35,007 nucleotides of DNA from an uncultured bacterium (GTDB lineage: Bacteria > Patescibacteriota > Minisyncoccia > Phycocordibacterales > Phycocordibacteraceae): positions 1 through 35,007 of the forward strand of contig CAIJZI010000003.1 in assembly GCA_903825105.1 (NCBI GenBank). The letters are read 5' to 3'. Positions 9,789-30,518 of the stretch are shown here, piece by piece. The notes beneath the pieces are model-generated. The model saw nothing but the letters and a program-made list of their open reading frames with translations. It was not told where the DNA came from and did no database searches. The first letter of the stretch is position 1. Every line of letters starts with the position of its first letter. The position numbers and the translations under genes were made by a program.

Positions 9789-10655
9789 ATGACAAAACAA
9801 AAACTCATTCTCGTGACTGGCGGTGCTGGCTTTATCGGCTCGCATCTCTGCGAGCGCTTGGTCAAAGATGGCCACCAGGTTATCTCGCTCGACAATTACT
9901 TTACCGGCTCTCGCGAGAATCATATCGAAGGCGTCGATTATCGCGAAGGTCATACGAAGGATATTGAGAAGCACGTTCCAGAAACGCCCGATATTGTGTA
10001 TCACCTCGGTGAATATTCGAGAGTAGAAAAAAGTTTTGAAGAACCAGCGCTTGTATGGGACTTAAACAAAGATGGTACATTTGGTGTACTTGAATTCTGG
10101 CGGAAGAAAAAATGCAAACTTTTGTATGCGGGTTCATCAACAAAATTTGCAGATGATGGCGCCGGGCGAGACCAAAGTCCTTATGCGTGGACAAAAGCAA
10201 CAAATACAGAACTCGTTAAAAATTATGGCAGCTGGTATGACTTATCGTATGCCATTACATATTTTTATAATGTGTATGGTCCCGGAGAACGCTCAGGCGC
10301 ATACGGAACAGTTATTGAAATTTTCAGAAAAAAATATAGTGCTGGCGAACCATTTACAATAACTGCTCCGGGAACGCAAAAAAGGAATTTTACTCATGTC
10401 GATGATATTATCGATGGCTTGGTGCTTGTAGGTTCGAACGGAATTGGAGATGGTTTTGGGATTGGCAATGAGCAAGCGTATTCAATACTTGAAGTCGCAA
10501 AACTATTTGGTGGTGAAATAGTAATGACTCTACCACGACAAGGTAACAGAATGATTTCAGAAATTAACACATCAAAAACACGTGCTCTCGGCTGGTCGTC
10601 AAAAAAGAATCTAGCCGATTACATTTCTGATATTTGTTTACACAAAACGGTCTAA
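9789..10655 (+). CDS. NAD-dependent epimerase/dehydratase (extended SDR)
   Basis: VTGGAGFIGSHL, YxxxK motif (YAWTK) and FYNVYGP. Start moved to ATG 9789. Confidence 0.9.
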   Translation: MTKQKLILVTGGAGFIGSHLCERLVKDGHQVISLDNYFTGSRENHIEGVDYREGHTKDIEKHVPETPDIVYHLGEYSRVEKSFEEPALVWDLNKDGTFGVLEFWRKKKCKLLYAGSSTKFADDGAGRDQSPYAWTKATNTELVKNYGSWYDLSYAITYFYNVYGPGERSGAYGTVIEIFRKKYSAGEPFTITAPGTQKRNFTHVDDIIDGLVLVGSNGIGDGFGIGNEQAYSILEVAKLFGGEIVMTLPRQGNRMISEINTSKTRALGWSSKKNLADYISDICLHKTV

Positions 10656-11860
10656 TGAAAAAAATACTGATTTTTTCGCTTAATTATTATCCGCGATTTA
10701 TTGGCGGAGCTGAGGTGGCGATAAAAGAAATCACCGATCGCGTGAGCCCTGATGAAATCGAATTTCATATGGTGGCACTGCGGAACGATTCGAATCTCTT
10801 AAAGGATGAAAAAGTCGGGAATGTTTTTGTCCACCGCATCGGCTTTACGCGCGATAATCCAACAATTTCTGATTTAAATAAATTCCCGCTGCGCTTGTTG
10901 AAGCATTGGTATCAGTTCGGCGCATTCTTCGCGGCGTTACGGTTGCATAAAAAATATCATTTCGATTGTACTTGGGCGATGATGGCGCATTCAACCGGTA
11001 TTCCTGCTGGGCTTTTAAAAACATTTAAGCCAAATGTTAAGTATTTGCTAACCCTTCAAGAAGGCGATCCGCCAGAATATATCGAGAAGCTCGCGCGACC
11101 GGTGTGGCCATTGTTTAAGCGCGCCTTTACCAAGGCCGACGCGCTGCAGCCGATTTCAACCTTCTTATTCAATTGGGGCAGAAGAATGGGATTCAAAGGC
11201 GAAGCCGAAGTTATTCCAAATGCGGTAAATATCGCGCATTTTTCTAAAGAGATTTCTTCTGATGAGCGAAATAAATTTCGTGCGAAGCTGGGTCTTACCG
11301 AAAACGATTTTATTTTGATAACCACTTCGCGTTTAGTGAATAAAAATGCGGTGGATGATGTTATTAGCTCACTCGTATTTCTCCCAGAAAAGGTACATTT
11401 TGTTGTTTGCGGTATTGGTCCCGATGAAGAAAAGTTACAAGAGCTCACGGTAAAAAATAATCTACAGTCGCGCGTCCACTTTATTGGACAAATTGGGCAC
11501 GATGAATTGCCTAAAGCACTGAAATCCTGCGATATTTTCATTCGCCCGTCGCGCTCCGAAGGAATGGGGAATTCGTTTATAGAAGCAATGGCTGCTGGCG
11601 TTCCGGTTATAGCGACGCAAGAAGGTGGAATTGCAGACTTCCTTTTTGATGCAAAGAAAAATCCAGAAAAAGAAACAACGGGCTGGGCAGTAGACAAGGA
11701 TTCTCCAAAACAAATCGCGGAAGCGGTTAAAGATATAATGGAAAATTCAGAAAAAGTGGCTTTCGTTACTGCCACTGCGAAAAAACTGGTTGGAGAAAAA
11801 TATGATTGGGATACGGTCGCCGAGAAAATGAAAATGGTGTATAACAAATTGTGTAAATGA
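10655..11860 (+). CDS. Glycosyltransferase family 4
   Basis: GGAE N-terminal motif and RSEGMGNSFIEAMAAG (E-x7-E). Start moved to ATG 10655. Confidence 0.9.
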   Translation: MKKILIFSLNYYPRFIGGAEVAIKEITDRVSPDEIEFHMVALRNDSNLLKDEKVGNVFVHRIGFTRDNPTISDLNKFPLRLLKHWYQFGAFFAALRLHKKYHFDCTWAMMAHSTGIPAGLLKTFKPNVKYLLTLQEGDPPEYIEKLARPVWPLFKRAFTKADALQPISTFLFNWGRRMGFKGEAEVIPNAVNIAHFSKEISSDERNKFRAKLGLTENDFILITTSRLVNKNAVDDVISSLVFLPEKVHFVVCGIGPDEEKLQELTVKNNLQSRVHFIGQIGHDELPKALKSCDIFIRPSRSEGMGNSFIEAMAAGVPVIATQEGGIADFLFDAKKNPEKETTGWAVDKDSPKQIAEAVKDIMENSEKVAFVTATAKKLVGEKYDWDTVAEKMKMVYNKLCK

Positions 11861-12717
11861 AGACTCCTCTTATTGGCTTTGTCGGGCAAGGGTATGTCGG
11901 TAAAAATTATGCCGACGATTTTGAATCGCGTGGATACAGCACCGTAAGATATTCACTCGAAGAGCCATATATAAAAAATAAAGAAAAAATAAAAGAATGC
12001 GACATGGTATTTATTGCTGTGCCGACGCCGACAACGCCAAAAGGTTTTGACGGCTCGATTGTGGAAGAAGCACTCACTCTGGTTGGTGTTGGGAAAATTG
12101 CGGTCATAAAATCAACTATAGCCCCATACCCATGTACAACAAAAAAATTACAAGCGACATATCCTGATCGCACTATACTTTTCTCTCCAGAATTTCTTTC
12201 AGAAGCGACGGCAGCAGAAGATGCTGCGCATCCTTTTGCGAACATTGTCGGTATGCCAATTGACGACGCTTTACATAAAGACGCAGCAGAAAAGGTGCAC
12301 GCCGTTCTTCCGGAATCCCCATTCTCTCTTACTTGCGACAGTGCAGAAGCAGAAATAATTAAATACGCGCACAACGGGAGCGCTTTTGTCGAAATACTCT
12401 TTTTTAATCTTATGTACGATCTCTCGGAGAAGCTCGGATGTGATTGGGCAGTTATTCAAAAAGCATTAGAGAACGATCCTTTAATCGCGCAGCGCTACGC
12501 GAAGCCGTTACATAAGTCTGGCAGGGGTGCTGGCGGGCACTGTTTTATTAAAGATTTTGAAGCATTGAGCCGCTCATATGTCGAGGCGGTTGGAGAAGAG
12601 AGGGGTATGAAGCTTTTCGAAGCATTAAAAGAAAAAAATAAAGTCTTGCTTATACAAAGTGGCAAGGATTTAGACCTATTAGCACAAGTATACGGCGACC
12701 TTTCAACATCTAAATAA
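11857..12717 (+). CDS. UDP-glucose/GDP-mannose dehydrogenase family protein, short form lacking the C-terminal domain
   Basis: GQGYVG, IAVPTP, IKST, SPEFLSE, EIIKYAHN and GAGGHCFIKD (catalytic Cys). Only 286 aa. Confidence 0.85.
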   Translation: MKTPLIGFVGQGYVGKNYADDFESRGYSTVRYSLEEPYIKNKEKIKECDMVFIAVPTPTTPKGFDGSIVEEALTLVGVGKIAVIKSTIAPYPCTTKKLQATYPDRTILFSPEFLSEATAAEDAAHPFANIVGMPIDDALHKDAAEKVHAVLPESPFSLTCDSAEAEIIKYAHNGSAFVEILFFNLMYDLSEKLGCDWAVIQKALENDPLIAQRYAKPLHKSGRGAGGHCFIKDFEALSRSYVEAVGEERGMKLFEALKEKNKVLLIQSGKDLDLLAQVYGDLSTSK

Positions 12718-12734
12718 TCGCGTAGAATAGCACT

Positions 12735-13826
12735 ATGCGTGTTGTTATAGCCACTCCGCTCTATCCACCAGACATTGGCGGCCCGGCGACTGATGCCTCT
12801 TCTCTTGTTTCGTATCTTGAAAAAAATGAGAAAGAAATAAAAGCGACAGTTTGTCAATTTGGTCGAGTAAGGCATTTGCCAAAATTGATACGCCATATCG
12901 CTTATGGATTTATTCTCGCGCACGCGTCACGCGGAGCGGATTGTGTAGTTGTATTTGATACTGTTTCTGTTGGACTGCCGGCGATGATTGTTTCTAAAAT
13001 AATGCGCGTGCCATTTATCGTGCGCGTCCCAGGAGATTATGCTTGGGAACAGGGCGTCCAGAGATTTGGCGTAAAGGATTCTATAGATGAATTTCAAAAT
13101 AAAAAATATGGATTTCGCGTCGAGCTCTTACGCGCGGTACAAAATTTTGTCGTGCGAAACGCTCTGCGTGTGCTCGCGCCCAGTGAATATTTTAAAAAAA
13201 TAATATTCGGATGGGGAGTGAAAAAAGGAAATGTAAAGAGAATATATCTCGGTCTTGATTTTACTACACACACAGAAACTCCAGCGAGTGTTCCAGATGG
13301 AAAAATTATATTTTCAGCAGGGCGACTCGTGCCGTGGAAAGGGTTCTCGATGCTTCTCCATATCTTGCCCGAATTGCCGGAATGGAAATTAGTTATTGCA
13401 GGAGACGGGCCATTAAAAAATGAGTTGTATGAACAAGCACAAAAGCTTGATATCTTAGATCGAGTGATATTTACGGGCTCTCTATCCCGCGCGCAGATTG
13501 TAGGATGGCTTAAAACGGCTGATGTATTTGTGCTCAACACCTCATTTGAAAGCTTTTCATTTCAAATTGTTGAGGCAATGGCTAGTGGCATCCCCGTTAT
13601 AACGACTCCGGTTGGTAGTATCCCTGAGCTTATAGAAAACGGCGTGAATGGCATTCTGTGTCATCCGAACAATGAAAAAGCGTTTAAAGAGGCTATTTTA
13701 AGTGTTGCCACGGAACAAGAGCTTTGGGTAAAACGCATCGTTTTAGCAAAAGAAAAAACAGGACAATTCACGAGTGGGAAAGCGATGGAAGAATTAGTGA
13801 AAGATATAAAAAATATATGCGCATAA
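12735..13826 (+). CDS. Glycosyltransferase family 4
   Basis: PPDIGGP, GRLVPWKG, GDGP and ESFSFQIVEAMASG. Confidence 0.9.
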   Translation: MRVVIATPLYPPDIGGPATDASSLVSYLEKNEKEIKATVCQFGRVRHLPKLIRHIAYGFILAHASRGADCVVVFDTVSVGLPAMIVSKIMRVPFIVRVPGDYAWEQGVQRFGVKDSIDEFQNKKYGFRVELLRAVQNFVVRNALRVLAPSEYFKKIIFGWGVKKGNVKRIYLGLDFTTHTETPASVPDGKIIFSAGRLVPWKGFSMLLHILPELPEWKLVIAGDGPLKNELYEQAQKLDILDRVIFTGSLSRAQIVGWLKTADVFVLNTSFESFSFQIVEAMASGIPVITTPVGSIPELIENGVNGILCHPNNEKAFKEAILSVATEQELWVKRIVLAKEKTGQFTSGKAMEELVKDIKNICA

Positions 13827-25089: not shown

Positions 25090-27603
25090 ATGTTCGGCAT
25101 ATCCAAGCTTTTTACGAAGAATGAGTCAGCGTCCTTCTTAAAGGCCGCGGCACCTATCGTGGTAGCGACAAATGCTTTTTCTGAAGAATTCCGAGTGCTC
25201 TCCGATGAAGACCTTCGTGCGCGATTCAAAGAAATATACGATCAATCGCGAGAGGTGAGTGTTGCTTCTGAAAAAGATATTCCACTTATCTTTGCACTCG
25301 TGCGGGAAGCGTCTCGTCGCACACGAAATGAGTTTCACTTCGATGTTCAACTTATCGGCGGACTCGCGTTGCTTCGTAGTAAGGTAGCGGAGATGCGCAC
25401 AGGAGAAGGGAAGACGCTTGTTGCAACTCTCCCAGCTACTTTCCATGCACTGTCGGGGAAAGGAGTGCAAATTATTACGGTCAATGATTATCTCGCGCGG
25501 CGTGATACCACTTGGATGGGGCAGGTGTATGACTTCCTTGGACTCACAGTTGGCGTAGTGACCTCAACAGGCTCATATCGCTACGATGCGTCGCATATCT
25601 CAAAAGAAGAAGACTCTGAACGAGACGCAGAAGGATCGTTCAAAGTCTTCTATGACTATTTGCGCCCAGTGACAAAGAAAGAGGCATACGCCTGTGACAT
25701 CACCTATGTGACGAACAATGAACTCGGCTTCGATTATCTTCGCGACAACACTGCGTATGACGCTTCTCAAATCGTTCAGCGAGGATTTCACTATGCGATT
25801 ATCGACGAAGTGGATTCAATTTTAATTGATGAGGCGCGTATGCCGCTTATCATCTCTGGGCCGTCGGGCGATTCACAGATGTTTTATGAAAAATTCGCAG
25901 AGATTGTCAGGGGGATGAAAGAGGGAGAGGATTATGCTGTAGATGAAAAACAAAAAGCGATTCAGATAACCGAAGAAGGAATGCATAAGGCCGAAGTGGC
26001 GCTCGGACTCGAAAATATTTATACCGAAGGCGGGATTAAATATGCACACCATCTCGAGACCGCGGTGCGCGCACAAGCCCTTTTCTTTAAAGATAAAGAA
26101 TATGTCGTACGCGATGATGAGATTATTATTGTCGATGAATTCACGGGGAGAATGCAGCCCGGGAGACGCTGGTCAGACGGACTCCATCAGGCGATTGAAG
26201 CAAAAGAGGGTGTGAAGATTCAAGCAGAAACGCGCACATACGCGAGTGTCACCTTTCAAAATCTTTTTAGAATGTATGAAAAGCTCGCTGGAATGACCGG
26301 CACAGCGCTCTCTTCAGAAGAAGAATTTTATACCGTTTACAAGCTTGAAGTCGTTGTAGTGCCGACAAATAAACCATCGCTTAGAAAAGATCATAGTGAT
26401 CTCGTATTCCAAACGGCGAAAGGGAAATATACTGCGGTTGCGCGCGCGGTGAAGGAGCGTTATCAGAAAGGTCAGCCGGTATTGGTTGGTACCGTTTCGG
26501 TTGAAGATAATGAAATTGTCAGCGAATACTTAAAAGATGCGGGCGTTCCGCACGAAGTGTTGAATGCGAAGAATCACGAGCGCGAGGGAGAGATTATCGC
26601 CGAGGCGGGTAAAGAGGGAAGAATAACGGTCGCGACTAACCTCGCTGGTCGTGGCGTCGACATTAAACTCGGCGGTGCACTCGCCTCGGCAGAAGAGCGT
26701 GCTTCGGTCATCGAGAAGGGCGGGCTTATGGTTATCGGTACCGAGCGACACGACGCTCGTCGTATCGACAACCAGCTTCGCGGGCGTTCGGGACGACAAG
26801 GCGACCCAGGCGAAACGCGCTTTTATGTATCTCTTGAAGATAAGTTGATGCGCGTCTTCGCGGCTGACACCTTGAAAAAGGTGATGGGCCGTTTTGGCAT
26901 CCCTGAAGATGAGCCAATCGAGAGCGGGATCATTAGTAAGTCGCTTGAGACCGCACAGGGTCGAATCGAAGGATATAACTTCGACTCGCGTAAACAAGTC
27001 CTCGCGTATGACGATGTGATGAATACCCAGCGTCTCGCTATTTATGCACGCCGACGCGCGGCGCTTACGGGCACACCAGAAGAGGTAGAAGATATTTTTA
27101 ATATGCTTATTGAAGAGAGCGAGACGGCAAAAATCGCTTTCAATACAAAGAAAATAGAGCTCGATGATGACTTTGTCGATCACCTGCGCCGCCTTCTGCT
27201 CCAGGCAGTTGATGTCTTCTGGCTCGAACATCTAGAGACGATGGACTATTTGCGTAAATCGGTGTCGCTCCGCGCTTATGGCCAGCGTGATCCATTAATA
27301 GAATACCGTCGCGAGGGGCTCATCAGATTCCGCCAGCTTGAAGCAGACATTAAAGCAAAGGTACTAGAGGTATTGCCGTTTCTCCAGCGAGCTGATGATG
27401 CGCGTATTCGCGCAGAAGAAGAAAAGATTCGTGCCGCGATGATTGCCGCAGGAAAAGAAGAAGGGAGCGCGCAGCCGATTAAGAAGAGTGGTGAACACGG
27501 GCGAAACGATATTGTCACGATTAAAAAAGGCGACGAGACAAAAGAAATAAAATATAAAAAAGCCGAACCCTTCATCAACAATGGTTGGACCATTGTTGAA
27601 TAA
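25090..27603 (+). CDS. secA: Preprotein translocase ATPase SecA
   Basis: EMRTGEGKT, TVNDYLA, IDEVDSILIDEARMPLIISG, GRRWSDGLHQAIEAKE, LNAKNHERE, ATNLAGRGVDI and RIDNQLRGRSGRQGDPG. ATG 25081 overlaps the -10 box, so 25090 is preferred. Confidence 0.97.
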   Translation: MFGISKLFTKNESASFLKAAAPIVVATNAFSEEFRVLSDEDLRARFKEIYDQSREVSVASEKDIPLIFALVREASRRTRNEFHFDVQLIGGLALLRSKVAEMRTGEGKTLVATLPATFHALSGKGVQIITVNDYLARRDTTWMGQVYDFLGLTVGVVTSTGSYRYDASHISKEEDSERDAEGSFKVFYDYLRPVTKKEAYACDITYVTNNELGFDYLRDNTAYDASQIVQRGFHYAIIDEVDSILIDEARMPLIISGPSGDSQMFYEKFAEIVRGMKEGEDYAVDEKQKAIQITEEGMHKAEVALGLENIYTEGGIKYAHHLETAVRAQALFFKDKEYVVRDDEIIIVDEFTGRMQPGRRWSDGLHQAIEAKEGVKIQAETRTYASVTFQNLFRMYEKLAGMTGTALSSEEEFYTVYKLEVVVVPTNKPSLRKDHSDLVFQTAKGKYTAVARAVKERYQKGQPVLVGTVSVEDNEIVSEYLKDAGVPHEVLNAKNHEREGEIIAEAGKEGRITVATNLAGRGVDIKLGGALASAEERASVIEKGGLMVIGTERHDARRIDNQLRGRSGRQGDPGETRFYVSLEDKLMRVFAADTLKKVMGRFGIPEDEPIESGIISKSLETAQGRIEGYNFDSRKQVLAYDDVMNTQRLAIYARRRAALTGTPEEVEDIFNMLIEESETAKIAFNTKKIELDDDFVDHLRRLLLQAVDVFWLEHLETMDYLRKSVSLRAYGQRDPLIEYRREGLIRFRQLEADIKAKVLEVLPFLQRADDARIRAEEEKIRAAMIAAGKEEGSAQPIKKSGEHGRNDIVTIKKGDETKEIKYKKAEPFINNGWTIVE

Positions 27604-27651
27604 GCACGAAATCCGAAGCACGAAAAACGAAACAAGCACCAAGCACCAAAA
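27601..27651 (+). repeat. Left heptamer-repeat arm of the four-helix-bundle cassette
   Basis: t-AAGCACG-AAATCCG-AAGCACG-AAAAACG-aaac-AAGCACC-AAGCACC-aaaa, running from the secA stop to the ATG. Confidence 0.85.
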
Positions 27652-28017
27652 ATGAAGACGGAGAAAACAAAACAATACGATCTGGAAGAAAGAACAATGA
27701 GATTTGCCAGCGAAGTGCGCACATTCGTACGACTGTTGCCGAAATCAATCGCGAATCGTGAAGATACGAGTCAGGTAGTGAGGTCTTCAGGTTCAGTAGG
27801 AGCAAATTATATCGAGGCAAACGAATCGTTAAGCAAAAAGGATTTTGTGATGCGTATAAAAATCTCCCGCAAAGAAGCGAAAGAAACTGCTTTTTGGTTA
27901 AAACTCATTGACACTGGCGGCAACGCCTTACTCGAAGAAAAGCGAAATGCGCTACACCAAGAAGCTCGGGAATTAATGTTCATATTGAGTTCAATTATGA
28001 GAAAATTTGAATCCTAA
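27652..28017 (+). CDS. Four-helix-bundle protein (23S rRNA IVS-protein / TIGR02436-type family)
   Basis: DLEERT..F...V, QVVRSSGSVGANYIEA, SKKDF..RIKISRKEAKETAFWL; 121 aa. Confidence 0.92.
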   Translation: MKTEKTKQYDLEERTMRFASEVRTFVRLLPKSIANREDTSQVVRSSGSVGANYIEANESLSKKDFVMRIKISRKEAKETAFWLKLIDTGGNALLEEKRNALHQEARELMFILSSIMRKFES

Positions 28018-28030
28018 TTTTTTTATTTCT

Positions 28031-28067
28031 AATTTGTTTCGGATTTCATGCTTCGTGCTTAGAATTT
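28031..28067 (-). repeat. Right heptamer-repeat arm (inverted) of the four-helix-bundle cassette
   Basis: Reverse complement reads AAATTCT-AAGCACG-AAGCATG-AAATCCG-aaac-AAATT, the same units as the left arm. Confidence 0.85.
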
Positions 28068-28089
28068 CCACTCGTGCTAGAGTGGCTGT

Positions 28090-29064
28090 ATGGCATTCGT
28101 GGACGAGATCAGGATATACGCGGAGTCGGGGAAAGGTGGCGACGGGGTCGTCCGCTGGCTCCATACCAAGACAAACGCCCGTGGCGGGCCATCGGGAGGC
28201 GACGGGGGCAGGGGCGGCGACGCGGTGCTTCTTGGTGTGCGCGATTATGCGGCTCTAGCGCACTATCGTTTTGAAAAAAAGTTTTGTGCAGAAAAGGGAG
28301 AAGACGGTAAAAATAATTTAAAGCACGGCGCGAACGGTGCAGATATCTTGATACGCGTACCCGTAGGCACTGTCGCGCGTGTTATTGATACCGGCGTTGA
28401 ATACGAAATGACCAAAGAAGATGAGAGGATCGTTATCTTCCGTGGGGGAATGGGTGGTAAAGGTAATGCCCGTTTTAAGAGTTCTACCAATCAAAACCCA
28501 TTTGAATTAACAAAAGGTAAGGATAATAAAGGTGGCGATATCGAGCTTAGTCTTAAGATTATCGCAGATGCTGGGCTTATAGGGCTCCCTAATTCAGGGA
28601 AGTCGTCTCTTCTTAATGCGCTCACACAAGCCAAGTCTATTGTCGGTGATTATCCTTTTACGACGCTTGAACCGCATCTCGGCGACTTCTATAGACGAAT
28701 ACTGGCGGACATCCCAGGGCTTATTGAGGGGGCCTCGTCTGGAAAAGGGCTTGGTATAAAATTTCTTAAGCACATAGAACGCACAAGGATTCTGCTACAT
28801 CTCGTCTCGGCTAGCCAAGATGACCCTATCGCATCATATAGAGAAGTACGCAATGAGGTTGAACTGTTTGGGCGCGGCTTACCTGACAAGAAGGAGATCA
28901 TTATCCTGTCAAAAATAGACCTTATTTCGCCCGAAGAATGCGAAACTAAAAAGCAGCTCCTTATACGCGAGACAGGCAGGGAAGTGCTCCTCGTCTCAAT
29001 AAAAGACCCGGTCGTTCTTAAAGAGTTTTCAGATCGACTTACGAAGCTCCTTGATATAAACTAG
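28090..29064 (+). CDS. obgE: GTPase ObgE/CgtA (short form)
   Basis: MAFVDE...SGKGGDG, GGPSGGDGGRGGD, GLPNSGKS, YPFTTLEPHLG and DIPGLIEGAS.GKGLG..FL.HIERT. Confidence 0.96.
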   Translation: MAFVDEIRIYAESGKGGDGVVRWLHTKTNARGGPSGGDGGRGGDAVLLGVRDYAALAHYRFEKKFCAEKGEDGKNNLKHGANGADILIRVPVGTVARVIDTGVEYEMTKEDERIVIFRGGMGGKGNARFKSSTNQNPFELTKGKDNKGGDIELSLKIIADAGLIGLPNSGKSSLLNALTQAKSIVGDYPFTTLEPHLGDFYRRILADIPGLIEGASSGKGLGIKFLKHIERTRILLHLVSASQDDPIASYREVRNEVELFGRGLPDKKEIIILSKIDLISPEECETKKQLLIRETGREVLLVSIKDPVVLKEFSDRLTKLLDIN

Positions 29065-29075
29065 AGATATCCCTT

Positions 29076-30518
29076 ATGGAGTATCTCCCGACCATCGGTC
29101 TCGAAATCCACGCTGAACTTAAAACGCGAACGAAGATGTTCTGCTCCTGTGCGAATGATCCAGATGAGTCGCGTCCCAATGTAAACATCTGTCCGATCTG
29201 TTTGGCGCATCCGGGTACGCTCCCGACGATTAACAAAGAGGCGGTTAAACAAGTACTTCGCGTTGGCGTAGCAGTAAATGGAACGAGTGCAGACGCGAGT
29301 GAATTTGATCGGAAGAGTTATTTTTATCCCGATATTCCAAAAGGGTATCAAATCAGTCAGTATGCGCGGCCACTTATTTCTGGAGGATCTCTCGCTGGCG
29401 TTTTGCTCACGCGCATCCACCTCGAAGAAGATACGGCGCGCTCGATACATCTCGAGGGCTCAAGCGCAGTTGATTTTAATCGTGCGGGGGTGCCGCTTAT
29501 GGAGCTCGTGACTGAGCCAGTAATACACGACGCAGAGACGGCAGGGAATTTTGCACGCGAGCTACAACTTCTACTACGAACCCTTAATGCGGGAGAAGCA
29601 AATCTTGAAAAAGGAGAAATGCGAATCGAAGCAAATATCAGTGTTGCAAAGCACGAAGCATCAAATACGAAATCCGAAATGGATACAAAATTGGGCACAA
29701 AAGTAGAAGTCAAAAATTTAAATTCATTTCGCTCGGTTGAACGCGCAATTGATTTTGAAATAAAAAGACAGATCGCTCTTATCGAGAGTGGTGGAGAAGT
29801 GCGCCAAGAAACGCGTGGGTGGAATGAGTCGAAGCAAGAGACCTTTCATCAGCGTTTTAAAGAAGACAGCGCAGACTATCGTTATTTCCCCGAGCCTGAT
29901 TTACCCAAGCTCGCGCTTTCTGAAATTGACACATTTTCTGTCGAAGCACTCAAAGCATCATTGCCCGAGCTCCCGTGGAATCGCCGTGCACGATATGTCG
30001 ATACTTACGGCATAAAAGAAAGTGACCTCGCTTATTTGTGTGCGACAAAAGAGCGCAGTGATTTTTTTGATAGTGTCGCATCAGAACTAGAAAATAAAAA
30101 TGAACTTGTAGCGCTCGCGGTAAATTATATTGTTTCGGATCTCGCGGGCATCGTAGCCAAAAGCGGTAATGATACGGTATCTAAATTAACGCCAAATACT
30201 TTTGCAAAGATGATTCGGCTCATTCAAGATGGAGTGATTTCTTCACGCGGTGCAAAAGATCTTCTGTATATACTCGTTGAGTCAGGCGGCGAACCAGAGA
30301 CAGTCGCGGCAGAGAACGGGCTTATACAGATCCACGATGATGCGGTGCTCGGAGAGGCAGTGGATGCAGTAATCGCGGCAGAGCAGAAAGCCGTACTTGA
30401 GTATAAAGCAGGGAAGCAGGCAGCTCTACAGTATCTCGTTGGTAAGGCTATGAAGGAGAGCCGCGGCGCAGGGAACCCCACAGAGTTGCAAAGGCTTCTC
30501 GTAGAAAAACTGGGTTAG
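29076..30518 (+). CDS. gatB: Asp-tRNA(Asn)/Glu-tRNA(Gln) amidotransferase subunit B
   Basis: IGLEIHAEL, FDRKSYFYPD.PKGYQISQY, RIHLEED, DFNRAGVPLMELVTEP, VEVKNLNSF and DYRYFPEPDLP, with a YqeY-like C-terminus. Confidence 0.97.
   Translation: MEYLPTIGLEIHAELKTRTKMFCSCANDPDESRPNVNICPICLAHPGTLPTINKEAVKQVLRVGVAVNGTSADASEFDRKSYFYPDIPKGYQISQYARPLISGGSLAGVLLTRIHLEEDTARSIHLEGSSAVDFNRAGVPLMELVTEPVIHDAETAGNFARELQLLLRTLNAGEANLEKGEMRIEANISVAKHEASNTKSEMDTKLGTKVEVKNLNSFRSVERAIDFEIKRQIALIESGGEVRQETRGWNESKQETFHQRFKEDSADYRYFPEPDLPKLALSEIDTFSVEALKASLPELPWNRRARYVDTYGIKESDLAYLCATKERSDFFDSVASELENKNELVALAVNYIVSDLAGIVAKSGNDTVSKLTPNTFAKMIRLIQDGVISSRGAKDLLYILVESGGEPETVAAENGLIQIHDDAVLGEAVDAVIAAEQKAVLEYKAGKQAALQYLVGKAMKESRGAGNPTELQRLLVEKLG
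29649..29680 (+). repeat. Heptamer-repeat tract in frame inside gatB
   Basis: AAGCACG-AAGCATC-AAATACG-AAATCCG-AAAT encodes KHEASNTKSEM, with the same units as the cassette arms. Confidence 0.75.

Follow-up and report, generated by a model that had tools for sequence, protein, structure and literature searches.

The closest described relatives of the locus reported here are the intervening sequences (IVSs) of bacterial rRNA genes that carry an open reading frame (ORF). In Coxiella burnetii, the IVS in helix 45 of the 23S rRNA has a 28-bp terminal stem and encodes S23p, a protein of the PF05635 family; two to three GACAGAT heptamers precede the S23p start codon, and RNase III cuts the IVS at the first heptamer (PMC4990558). 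Leptospira 23S rRNA also has an IVS (Ralph & McClelland 1993, as cited in PMC4990558), and 23S_rRNA_IVP ORFs have been catalogued in 16S and 23S insertions of the candidate phyla radiation (CPR) (PMC11270868). PF05635 is homologous, in fold and family, to Avd, the pentameric four-helix-bundle accessory protein of diversity-generating retroelements (DGRs) (PMC10053308). Tandem heptanucleotide arrays and convergent pairs of them occur in Xanthomonas (GGGAATC) and Nostoc (GGGGAYT) (PMC4692102), and the heptamer families GGACCGG and MTYCTGA in Geobacter metallireducens (PMC2700814). Since the early 1990s, ORF-bearing rRNA IVSs have gone unexplained, and so have the function of the very large family PF05635 and the excess of heptanucleotide repeats in bacteria. 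Here we describe a locus that, together with its relatives, ties these subjects to one another, with one gene family lying in inverted 7-mer arrays in rRNA and in operons. It lies in a 35,007-nt stretch of DNA (the window) from an uncultured bacterium of the Patescibacteriota (assembly GCA_903825105.1, contig CAIJZI010000003.1), and we consider it likely to be one copy of a widespread IVS-type guest cassette of about 470 bp, situated in a co-directional secA, cassette, obg spacer. In the literature searched, no paper connected heptamer arms with PF05635 genes that lie outside rRNA.

A PF05635 gene between heptamer arms

The window is contig C3 of an assembly, referred to as G000, of nine contigs (600 kb, G+C 0.44-0.48). 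The cassette ORF matched PF05635 with an E value of 5e-14 (52.8 bits, cut-off 33.8) and TIGR02436, 'four helix bundle protein', with an E value of 5e-21 (74.9 bits, cut-off 24). Residues 7-117 matched the solved structure 2RLD (E 6e-11), whose entry holds five chains. The RxxxSxxxNxxE motif conserved in the family (PMC3936711) was found as R44, S48, N52, and E55 within QVVRSSGSVGANYIEAN.

On the left, the gene is preceded by seven A-rich heptamers, in the order AAGCACG, AAATCCG, AAGCACG, AAAAACG, AAACAAG, CACCAAG, and CACCAAA, followed by the ATG at 27652. The secA stop codon TAA (27601-27603) doubles as the first three bases of TAAGCACG, fused to the first of these units. Single heptamers were not enriched across the genome, and only clustered arrays stood out. 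The inverted-repeat search returned several alternative pairing registers between the two arms, among them the perfect 10-bp pair TAAGCACGAA (27601-27610) and TTCGTGCTTA (28052-28061).

In the minimum free energy fold of the 496-nt transcript, the arm stem closed off the entire ORF, with predicted segments 27601-09:28053-61, 27617-20:28049-52, 27622-25:28044-47, and 27628-35:28034-41 and a bulge at 27610-16 that corresponds to one heptamer; together, the arms are modeled as an interrupted stem of about 25 bp. Folded on their own as a mini-construct, the arms gave -34.8 kcal/mol, compared to -15.6 +/- 3.1 kcal/mol with the right arm shuffled (z -6.1), and 0 of 300 shuffled right arms reached the energy of the real construct. 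The mean probability of left-arm bases pairing with the right arm was 0.61 in the full transcript. Alignment scores and shuffles took the place of RNAduplex energies for 100-nt flanks, because control ORFs in GC-rich genomes scored equally low and the comparison was thus confounded by GC content.

The original prediction, made from the letters alone, had described an ORF between secA and obg enclosed by AAGCACG/AAATCCG-type arrays, direct on the left from the secA stop codon and inverted on the right, and a stem looping out the ORF in several registers, including a perfect 10-bp pair. The arrays were confirmed by the sequence and the repeat search and the stem by the repeat search and the fold; with sequence, family, and fold confirmed, this observation was therefore correct in every detail. 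Its interpretation was supported in part. The IVS-like architecture that it proposed was borne out by the PF05635 ORF, the heptamers before the ATG, and the terminal stem, as in Coxiella (PMC4990558). So was its picture of a unit within a string of protein-coding genes and lacking a transposase, the 121-aa gene being the sole ORF.

Conservation of gene and arms across phyla

Relatives were sought by a scan of one genome per species, which yielded more than 567 members of this PF05635 subfamily; the comparison of arms rests on the best 80 of them (57-83% amino acid identity). These span more than 15 phyla, comprising the candidate groups Kaiser-, Berkel-, Wolfe-, Roizman-, Levyi-, Curtiss-, Falkow-, Peregrini-, and Saccharibacteria as well as Omnitrophota, Planctomycetota, Verrucomicrobiota, Thermodesulfobacteriota, Myxococcota, Bacteroidota, Balneolota, Nitrospirota, Chloroflexota, and Pseudomonadota. 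In nearly all 80, tandem AAATCCG, AAATTCG, AAGCACG, or AATATCG units ending in ...CGAAACAAATTCAAATG lie upstream of the gene, and the stop codon is followed by 20-40 nt and then by TTTGAATTTGTTTCGGATTTCGATATTCGAATTTCGGATTT.

When each upstream flank was aligned with the reverse complement of the downstream flank, 80% of 83 cassettes exceeded a z of 3, compared to 5% of 241 control ORFs from the same loci (Mann-Whitney U test, p 1e-34). Lag-7 identity was 0.44 in both flanks, and the coding part showed a lag of 3. The two arms also change together: the own right arm was the best partner of the left arm in 17 of 81 cassettes (about one expected), and at the inner anchor NNAAACAA/TTGTTTNN a replacement of CG by CT, CC, or AC had occurred on both sides seven times, with 1.3 expected (p about 2e-4). 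The arms are asymmetric in a conserved manner: left arms are enriched in AAGCACG and right arms in AATATCG.

The nearest named relative is the orthologous secA/obg cassette locus (L041) of a congener, a Candidatus Kaiserbacteria metagenome-assembled genome (MAG; G067). Its arms are 80% (left) and 70% (right) identical to ours and differ by one 7-nt unit, at a distance at which synonymous sites are saturated. The two genes gave a pN of 0.096 and a pS of 0.78; across the cassette-gene comparisons, pN was about 0.1, pS 0.6-0.8 (saturated), and dN/dS at most 0.08. Judged by these substitution patterns, the cassette gene is under strong purifying selection. Between cassettes from unrelated hosts, homology of 66-90% stops at the arms, and the outer flanks are unrelated. 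Comparison of these loci shows that arms and gene travel together across phyla and that both are constrained. In the protein tree, the phyla do not separate: it has 38 label changes where 21 would be the minimum, and several of its mixed clades are well supported. Transfer of the cassette between phyla is supported. A scan of viral contigs with two peptide patterns, of limited sensitivity, found no relative.

Among loci L047, L079, and L084, two show the arms of the gene in exchanged positions, perhaps a sign of adjacent cassettes, and in one the entire upstream arm region recurs downstream as a direct repeat, perhaps through tandem duplication.

Relation to the diversity-generating retroelement

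A more ordinary reading would make the arms a chance inverted repeat or terminator-like structure beside an accessory Avd gene of the genome's DGR. The genome does have a DGR, and the cassette gene shares its fold and family with Avd (PMC10053308); however, the DGR is on another contig (C1) with an Avd-like ORF of its own, and the only reverse transcriptase (RT) and template repeat/variable repeat (TR/VR) pair of the genome are those on C1; no RT, TR, or VR is near the cassette. A role of the cassette gene as the DGR accessory Avd was rejected for this reason. The strength of the arm pairing, the recurrence of the same arms at 80 loci from many phyla, and the lack of a terminator-like site on the + strand also speak against this reading, which we regard as very improbable.

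The DGR itself is complete (G000:C1:10320-12243; locus L152 covers 9958-13566). The VR (10320-10427) is situated at the 3' end of a 208-aa target gene, the TR lies at 10745-10852, and all 12 TR/VR differences are at TR adenines. The Avd-like ORF (10857-11258) is on the minus strand, and the RT occupies 11200-12243.

Placement, comparison with rRNA IVSs, and proposed mechanism

Cassettes of this subfamily follow the direction of the surrounding genes. Both neighbors were on the strand of the cassette gene at 62 of 82 loci; taken singly, the upstream neighbor was co-oriented in 72 of 78 cases and the downstream neighbor in 68 of 71. The median distance was 68 nt from the upstream stop codon to the ATG and 81 nt from the cassette-gene stop codon to the next start, and the arms therefore fill the spacers; the upstream stop codon is often the T-AA of the first heptamer unit. 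No sigma-70-like promoter or intrinsic terminator was found on the + strand within the cassette.

The likeness to ORF-bearing rRNA IVSs comprises the PF05635 family, a length of about 430-470 nt, a terminal inverted-repeat stem of about 25-28 bp enclosing the ORF, and a sporadic distribution suggesting horizontal transfer; tandem heptamers directly before the ORF start are shared with the Coxiella IVS. In contrast to the rRNA IVSs, the present cassette lies between two protein-coding genes and not in a 16S or 23S helix, its heptamers are AAATCCG/AAGCACG where those of Coxiella are GACAGAT, and its gene is conserved, whereas the Coxiella ORF is reported to be decaying and unexpressed (PMC4990558). 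The congener G067 has a PF05635 gene in each setting: its 16S rRNA gene holds a second one (L126:230-668, G067:C32), the insert replacing a short helix after ...CATGCAAGTCGAACG. The left arm of this insert reads CTGGAGG, CTGGACA, CTGGAAG, CTAGAGG, and CTGGAAA, and the right arm consists of inverted units. The 16S rRNA gene of G000 has no insert at that position.

We propose that the cassette, having no promoter of its own, would be transcribed by read-through from secA, and that the arms would pair in the transcript into the interrupted stem of about 25 bp. This stem would be a substrate of the host RNase III, as in the IVSs of Coxiella and Leptospira, and cleavage would separate guest mRNA and host message; by such separation, we suggest, both rRNA and operons would tolerate the insert. 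The conserved protein, which is homologous to Avd and to solved PF05635 structures, would act on nucleic acid, possibly on the heptamer arrays. An RNase III gene (rnc) is present in G000. Cleavage has been demonstrated in the Coxiella IVS and is predicted for the cassette; by this analogy, the stem probably serves as an RNase III site, insulating the message of the host.

Period 7 in other PF05635 subfamilies

Eight genomes with this subfamily encode other PF05635 paralogues (up to 13 per genome) that fall in other subfamilies. These are likewise bracketed by inverted tandem repeats, of quite different units that include GGTGGCA, GGAAAGC, GATTGAA, ACTCACC, GTTAGAA, and GTTCTCA. Of 104 PF05635 genes, 87 had their best period at 7 in the upstream flank and 77 in the downstream flank (a few flanks favored 8), compared to 24 upstream and 25 downstream for 276 control ORFs (about 9%). 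A period of 7 is the rule for the family as a whole.

The second PF05635 gene of G000 (C8:6431-7001, L001) is flanked by AT-rich 8-mer arrays (ATTTAAAN), and a copy of its leader (TTTAAACATTTAAATATG) sits inside its own coding region. Similar 8-mer runs precede several genes unrelated to it; the arrays may be normal promoter or leader sequence and were not counted as arms.

History of the site and of the arrays within the genus

The Obg tree placed G000 within a clade of ten species. In the genus, five states of the secA/obg site were encountered: a filled site, arms around a different cargo, the left arm alone, a remnant of the right arm, and an empty site. The full cassette is present in G000 and G067. 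In G001, the sister of G000, homologous arms surround a RAYT-like Y1 gene, which brings REP-like hairpins of its own and a terminator. G009 retains the left arm plus the ATG only, joined directly to the obg promoter, and G036 a right-arm remnant ahead of the obg promoter, secA being no longer adjacent. The spacers of G017, G024, and G016 measure 2-45 nt and have no arms, and other relatives have TrpR/YerC-like, RAYT-like, or unknown genes at the site. Elsewhere, the nusG/rplK junction of G036 holds a 61%-identical cassette with AAGCACC-type arms, and that of G000 is an empty 22-nt spacer.

The original prediction had proposed an insertion between housekeeping genes, which stable synteny across the lineage would contradict. 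The comparison of relatives instead revealed empty sites and a hypervariable secA/obg junction, and the presence/absence polymorphism within the genus, with the conserved arms across phyla, agrees with insertion. Gain, decay, and loss of the cassette at gene junctions over evolution are supported, and its mobility on that time scale is well supported.

Among relatives, the secA/obg spacer (L012, L024, L026, L016, L020, L021) is a hot spot whose length varies between 2 and 1410 nt. Three species have RAYT-like Y1 genes there, accompanied by REP-like GATAGACACCTGGTGTC hairpins; two species have TrpR/YerC-like genes, and one has an unknown gene of 190 aa.

The arms are not peculiar to this gene copy, as had been supposed, since arrays also occur without the gene, around other cargo, and in frame within genes. 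A strict lag-7 genome scan (at least 21 of 28 matches) was too stringent for imperfect arrays, and a motif scan and an IUPAC pattern worked better. Arrays of at least three AARYNCG units were found in only 7 of 61 relatives (G000, 7; G001, 4; G009, 2; G010, 19; G013, 1; G036, 14; G051, 1). Gene-less mini hairpins lie at obg/gatB in G010 and G036 and at rpmE/prfA in G000; L154, likewise a gene-less mini hairpin, consists of the left arm, the ATG, three codons, a stop codon, and the right arm. The mini-hairpin loops of G010 all differ, and the arrays of G000 and G010 differ in loop and unit order. In-frame arrays were found inside gatB, tsaD, argS, uvrA, and a prepilin leader.

Such arrays raise the possibility, which we hold to be rather unlikely, that the arms are a resident landing pad: heptamer hairpins would arise and spread alone, by slippage or another process, and small genes, mostly of PF05635, would be captured as cargo. 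The different cargo within the same arms in G001, the cargo-less hairpins, the solo in-frame arrays in gatB, tsaD, argS, and uvrA, the 19 array matches of G010, in which the gene was not detected, and the gene-unlinked heptamer arrays of Xanthomonas, Nostoc, and Geobacter (PMC4692102, PMC2700814) would all fit. The arrays in these three genera are also tandem 7-mers, often in inverted, stem-loop-capable pairs in spacers and genes, with lengths that vary between relatives. However, the papers describing them name no gene family, whereas the arrays studied here bracket a PF05635 gene and share its phylogenetic distribution. Further points against capture are that the arms co-vary and co-travel with one protein subfamily, that homology ends exactly at the arms, that other PF05635 subfamilies have unit types of their own, and that the association is very strong. 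The mini hairpins, moreover, keep the start codon and ORF remnants, which suggests that they derive from full cassettes.

Weighing the guest cassette against a DNA-level element

Several results count against an IVS-type guest cassette that moves with its arms. With a score of 29 (rank 24 of 81), the stem in the window has interruptions and is partly decayed; for its left arm, the right arms of other cassettes are better partners. Arm mismatches are skewed to A.C (170) over sense-strand G.U (107), a result that gives no support for selection on a sense RNA helix; this test is confounded by the conserved left/right asymmetry of the units. G010 has its 19 array pattern matches and no detected gene of this subfamily, so that arms of the same units can persist or spread independently. 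Many loci come from MAGs, and binning errors could explain part of the apparent transfer across phyla. At the outer junctions of the 80 cassettes, whose ends read AAATYCG ... CGRATTT, no consistent target-site duplication was found; a recombinase or transposase is absent from the cassette, and near-identical copies at different sites were not found, so that no recent movement was seen.

A rival reading is a mobile element acting at the DNA level, in which the arrays would be terminal repeats or form a cruciform or hairpin, the protein or a recruited host enzyme would catalyze or direct insertion, and RNA pairing would be incidental. Terminal inverted arrays of repeated units do resemble multi-site transposase-binding ends, the G.U test does not favor the sense RNA, and a RAYT-like Y1 gene in the arm loop of G001 would fit hairpin-loop targeting on single-stranded DNA. 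Gene-less mini hairpins such as L154 look like internal-deletion derivatives of the MITE (miniature inverted-repeat transposable element) kind. Like MITEs and REPIN/RAYT systems, the cassettes are short inverted-repeat elements in spacers with autonomous-looking and miniature gene-less forms, and in G001 a RAYT-like gene occupies the same arms. Unlike them, they have no target-site duplication, transposase, or near-identical multi-copy families, and their arms are tandem 7-mers and not a single palindrome. PF05635 has no known catalytic motif, near-identical copies are lacking within a genome, the G010 loops being all different, and a DNA-level element would not lead one to expect so strong a sense co-orientation with host transcription, unless it required expression as well. 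We consider a DNA-level element unlikely, although a little less so than captured cargo; both stay in contention because of the cargo swap in G001 and the gene-less arrays of G010. An integron gene cassette, a promoterless ORF with one attC site downstream of it in an array beside intI, differs from the present one, which has tandem 7-mers on both sides of the ORF and stands as a single insert amid housekeeping genes; no search for intI was made.

A guest cassette of the IVS type remains the reading that we favor for the locus in the window. A broader and more tentative proposal is that PF05635 proteins read the heptamer arrays, one subfamily per unit type, and that gene and arrays form a self-propagating, enzyme-poor system in transcribed junctions. 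Its sites would be rRNA helices, operon spacers, and in-frame protein loops, and it would leave gene-less hairpins and solo arrays behind. If this is true, rRNA IVSs and much of the unexplained heptanucleotide-repeat excess in bacterial genomes would be products of one system. The small-genome CPR genus brings together, in a compact series found in nature, a full cassette, a swap of cargo, a solo arm, a mini hairpin, an in-frame array, and a 16S insert, which makes the stem as an RNase III insulator, protein-array binding, and the spread of arrays testable.

Layout of the locus and further heptamer arrays

The features of the locus are listed in Table 1. The T-rich spacer between the stop codon and the right arm has weak complementarity to the AAAAATGAAGA start region. 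The -10-like motif upstream of obg precedes this gene in relatives with or without a cassette (TGTGCTAAGGT, TGTGCTAGGGT, TGTGATAGGGT, and similar), and TGTGCTAGAGT is probably obg's own promoter, outside the cassette. An Rfam search of 27400-28300 at E <= 10 returned only noise.

Table 1 Features of the secA/obg cassette locus, in positions of the window
Feature	Position	Strand	Remarks
secA, 840 aa	25081..27603	+	Pfam SecA_DEAD, P-loop_SecA, SecA_SW, SecA_PP_bind
Left arm, direct heptamer array	27601..27650	+	Begins at TAAGCACG and runs into the start codon
Four-helix-bundle protein gene, 121 aa	27652..28017	+	PF05635 / TIGR02436; stop codon 28015-28017
T-rich spacer, stop codon to right arm	28018..28033	+	Read from the sequence
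Right arm, inverted heptamers TTGTTTCGGATTTCATGCTTCGTGCTTAGAATTTC	28034..28068	+	Repeat search and fold
Small hairpin CCACTCGTGCTAGAGTGG with extended -10-like TGTGCTAGAGT	28068..28089	+	Motif kept in relatives
obg, GTPase, downstream neighbor	28090..29064	+	Pfam GTP1_OBG, MMR_HSR1

Further arrays were observed both within the window and on other contigs. At 29649-29680, an in-frame heptamer run in gatB (AAGCACGAAGCATCAAATACGAAATCCGAAATG) lengthens a loop of GatB by about 10 residues (KHEASNTKSEMD). The insert of G010 is similar; in G001 and G006, inserts derived from other repeats occupy that loop, and most relatives have none. An (AAGCACG)n array encodes ...KARSTKHEARN... inserts at one shared position in argS of G036, G001, and G013 (L170, L156, L153), and an insert of the same type is encoded in uvrA of G036 (L177). 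On other contigs of G000, a gene-less hairpin (AAATCCG.. / ..CGAGCTT) at C2:2447-2520 (L157) lies in frame in the leader of a prepilin-like gene (MSMKIRNPKSEARNESIFGFRASSFELRAKRGYTLIEL), and the cargo-less heptamer hairpin at C7:72360-72440 is located between co-oriented minus-strand genes, by eye rpmE and prfA. In-frame arrays also occur in tsaD (C9:71599-71680), at a site shared with G036, and within the linker of another gene (C7:7460-7510). A different heptamer array, CTTAAAC x5 with one variant and no inverted partner, occupies the groES-groEL spacer (C8:57556-57612); groES is among the repeat-associated genes listed for Xanthomonas (PMC4692102).

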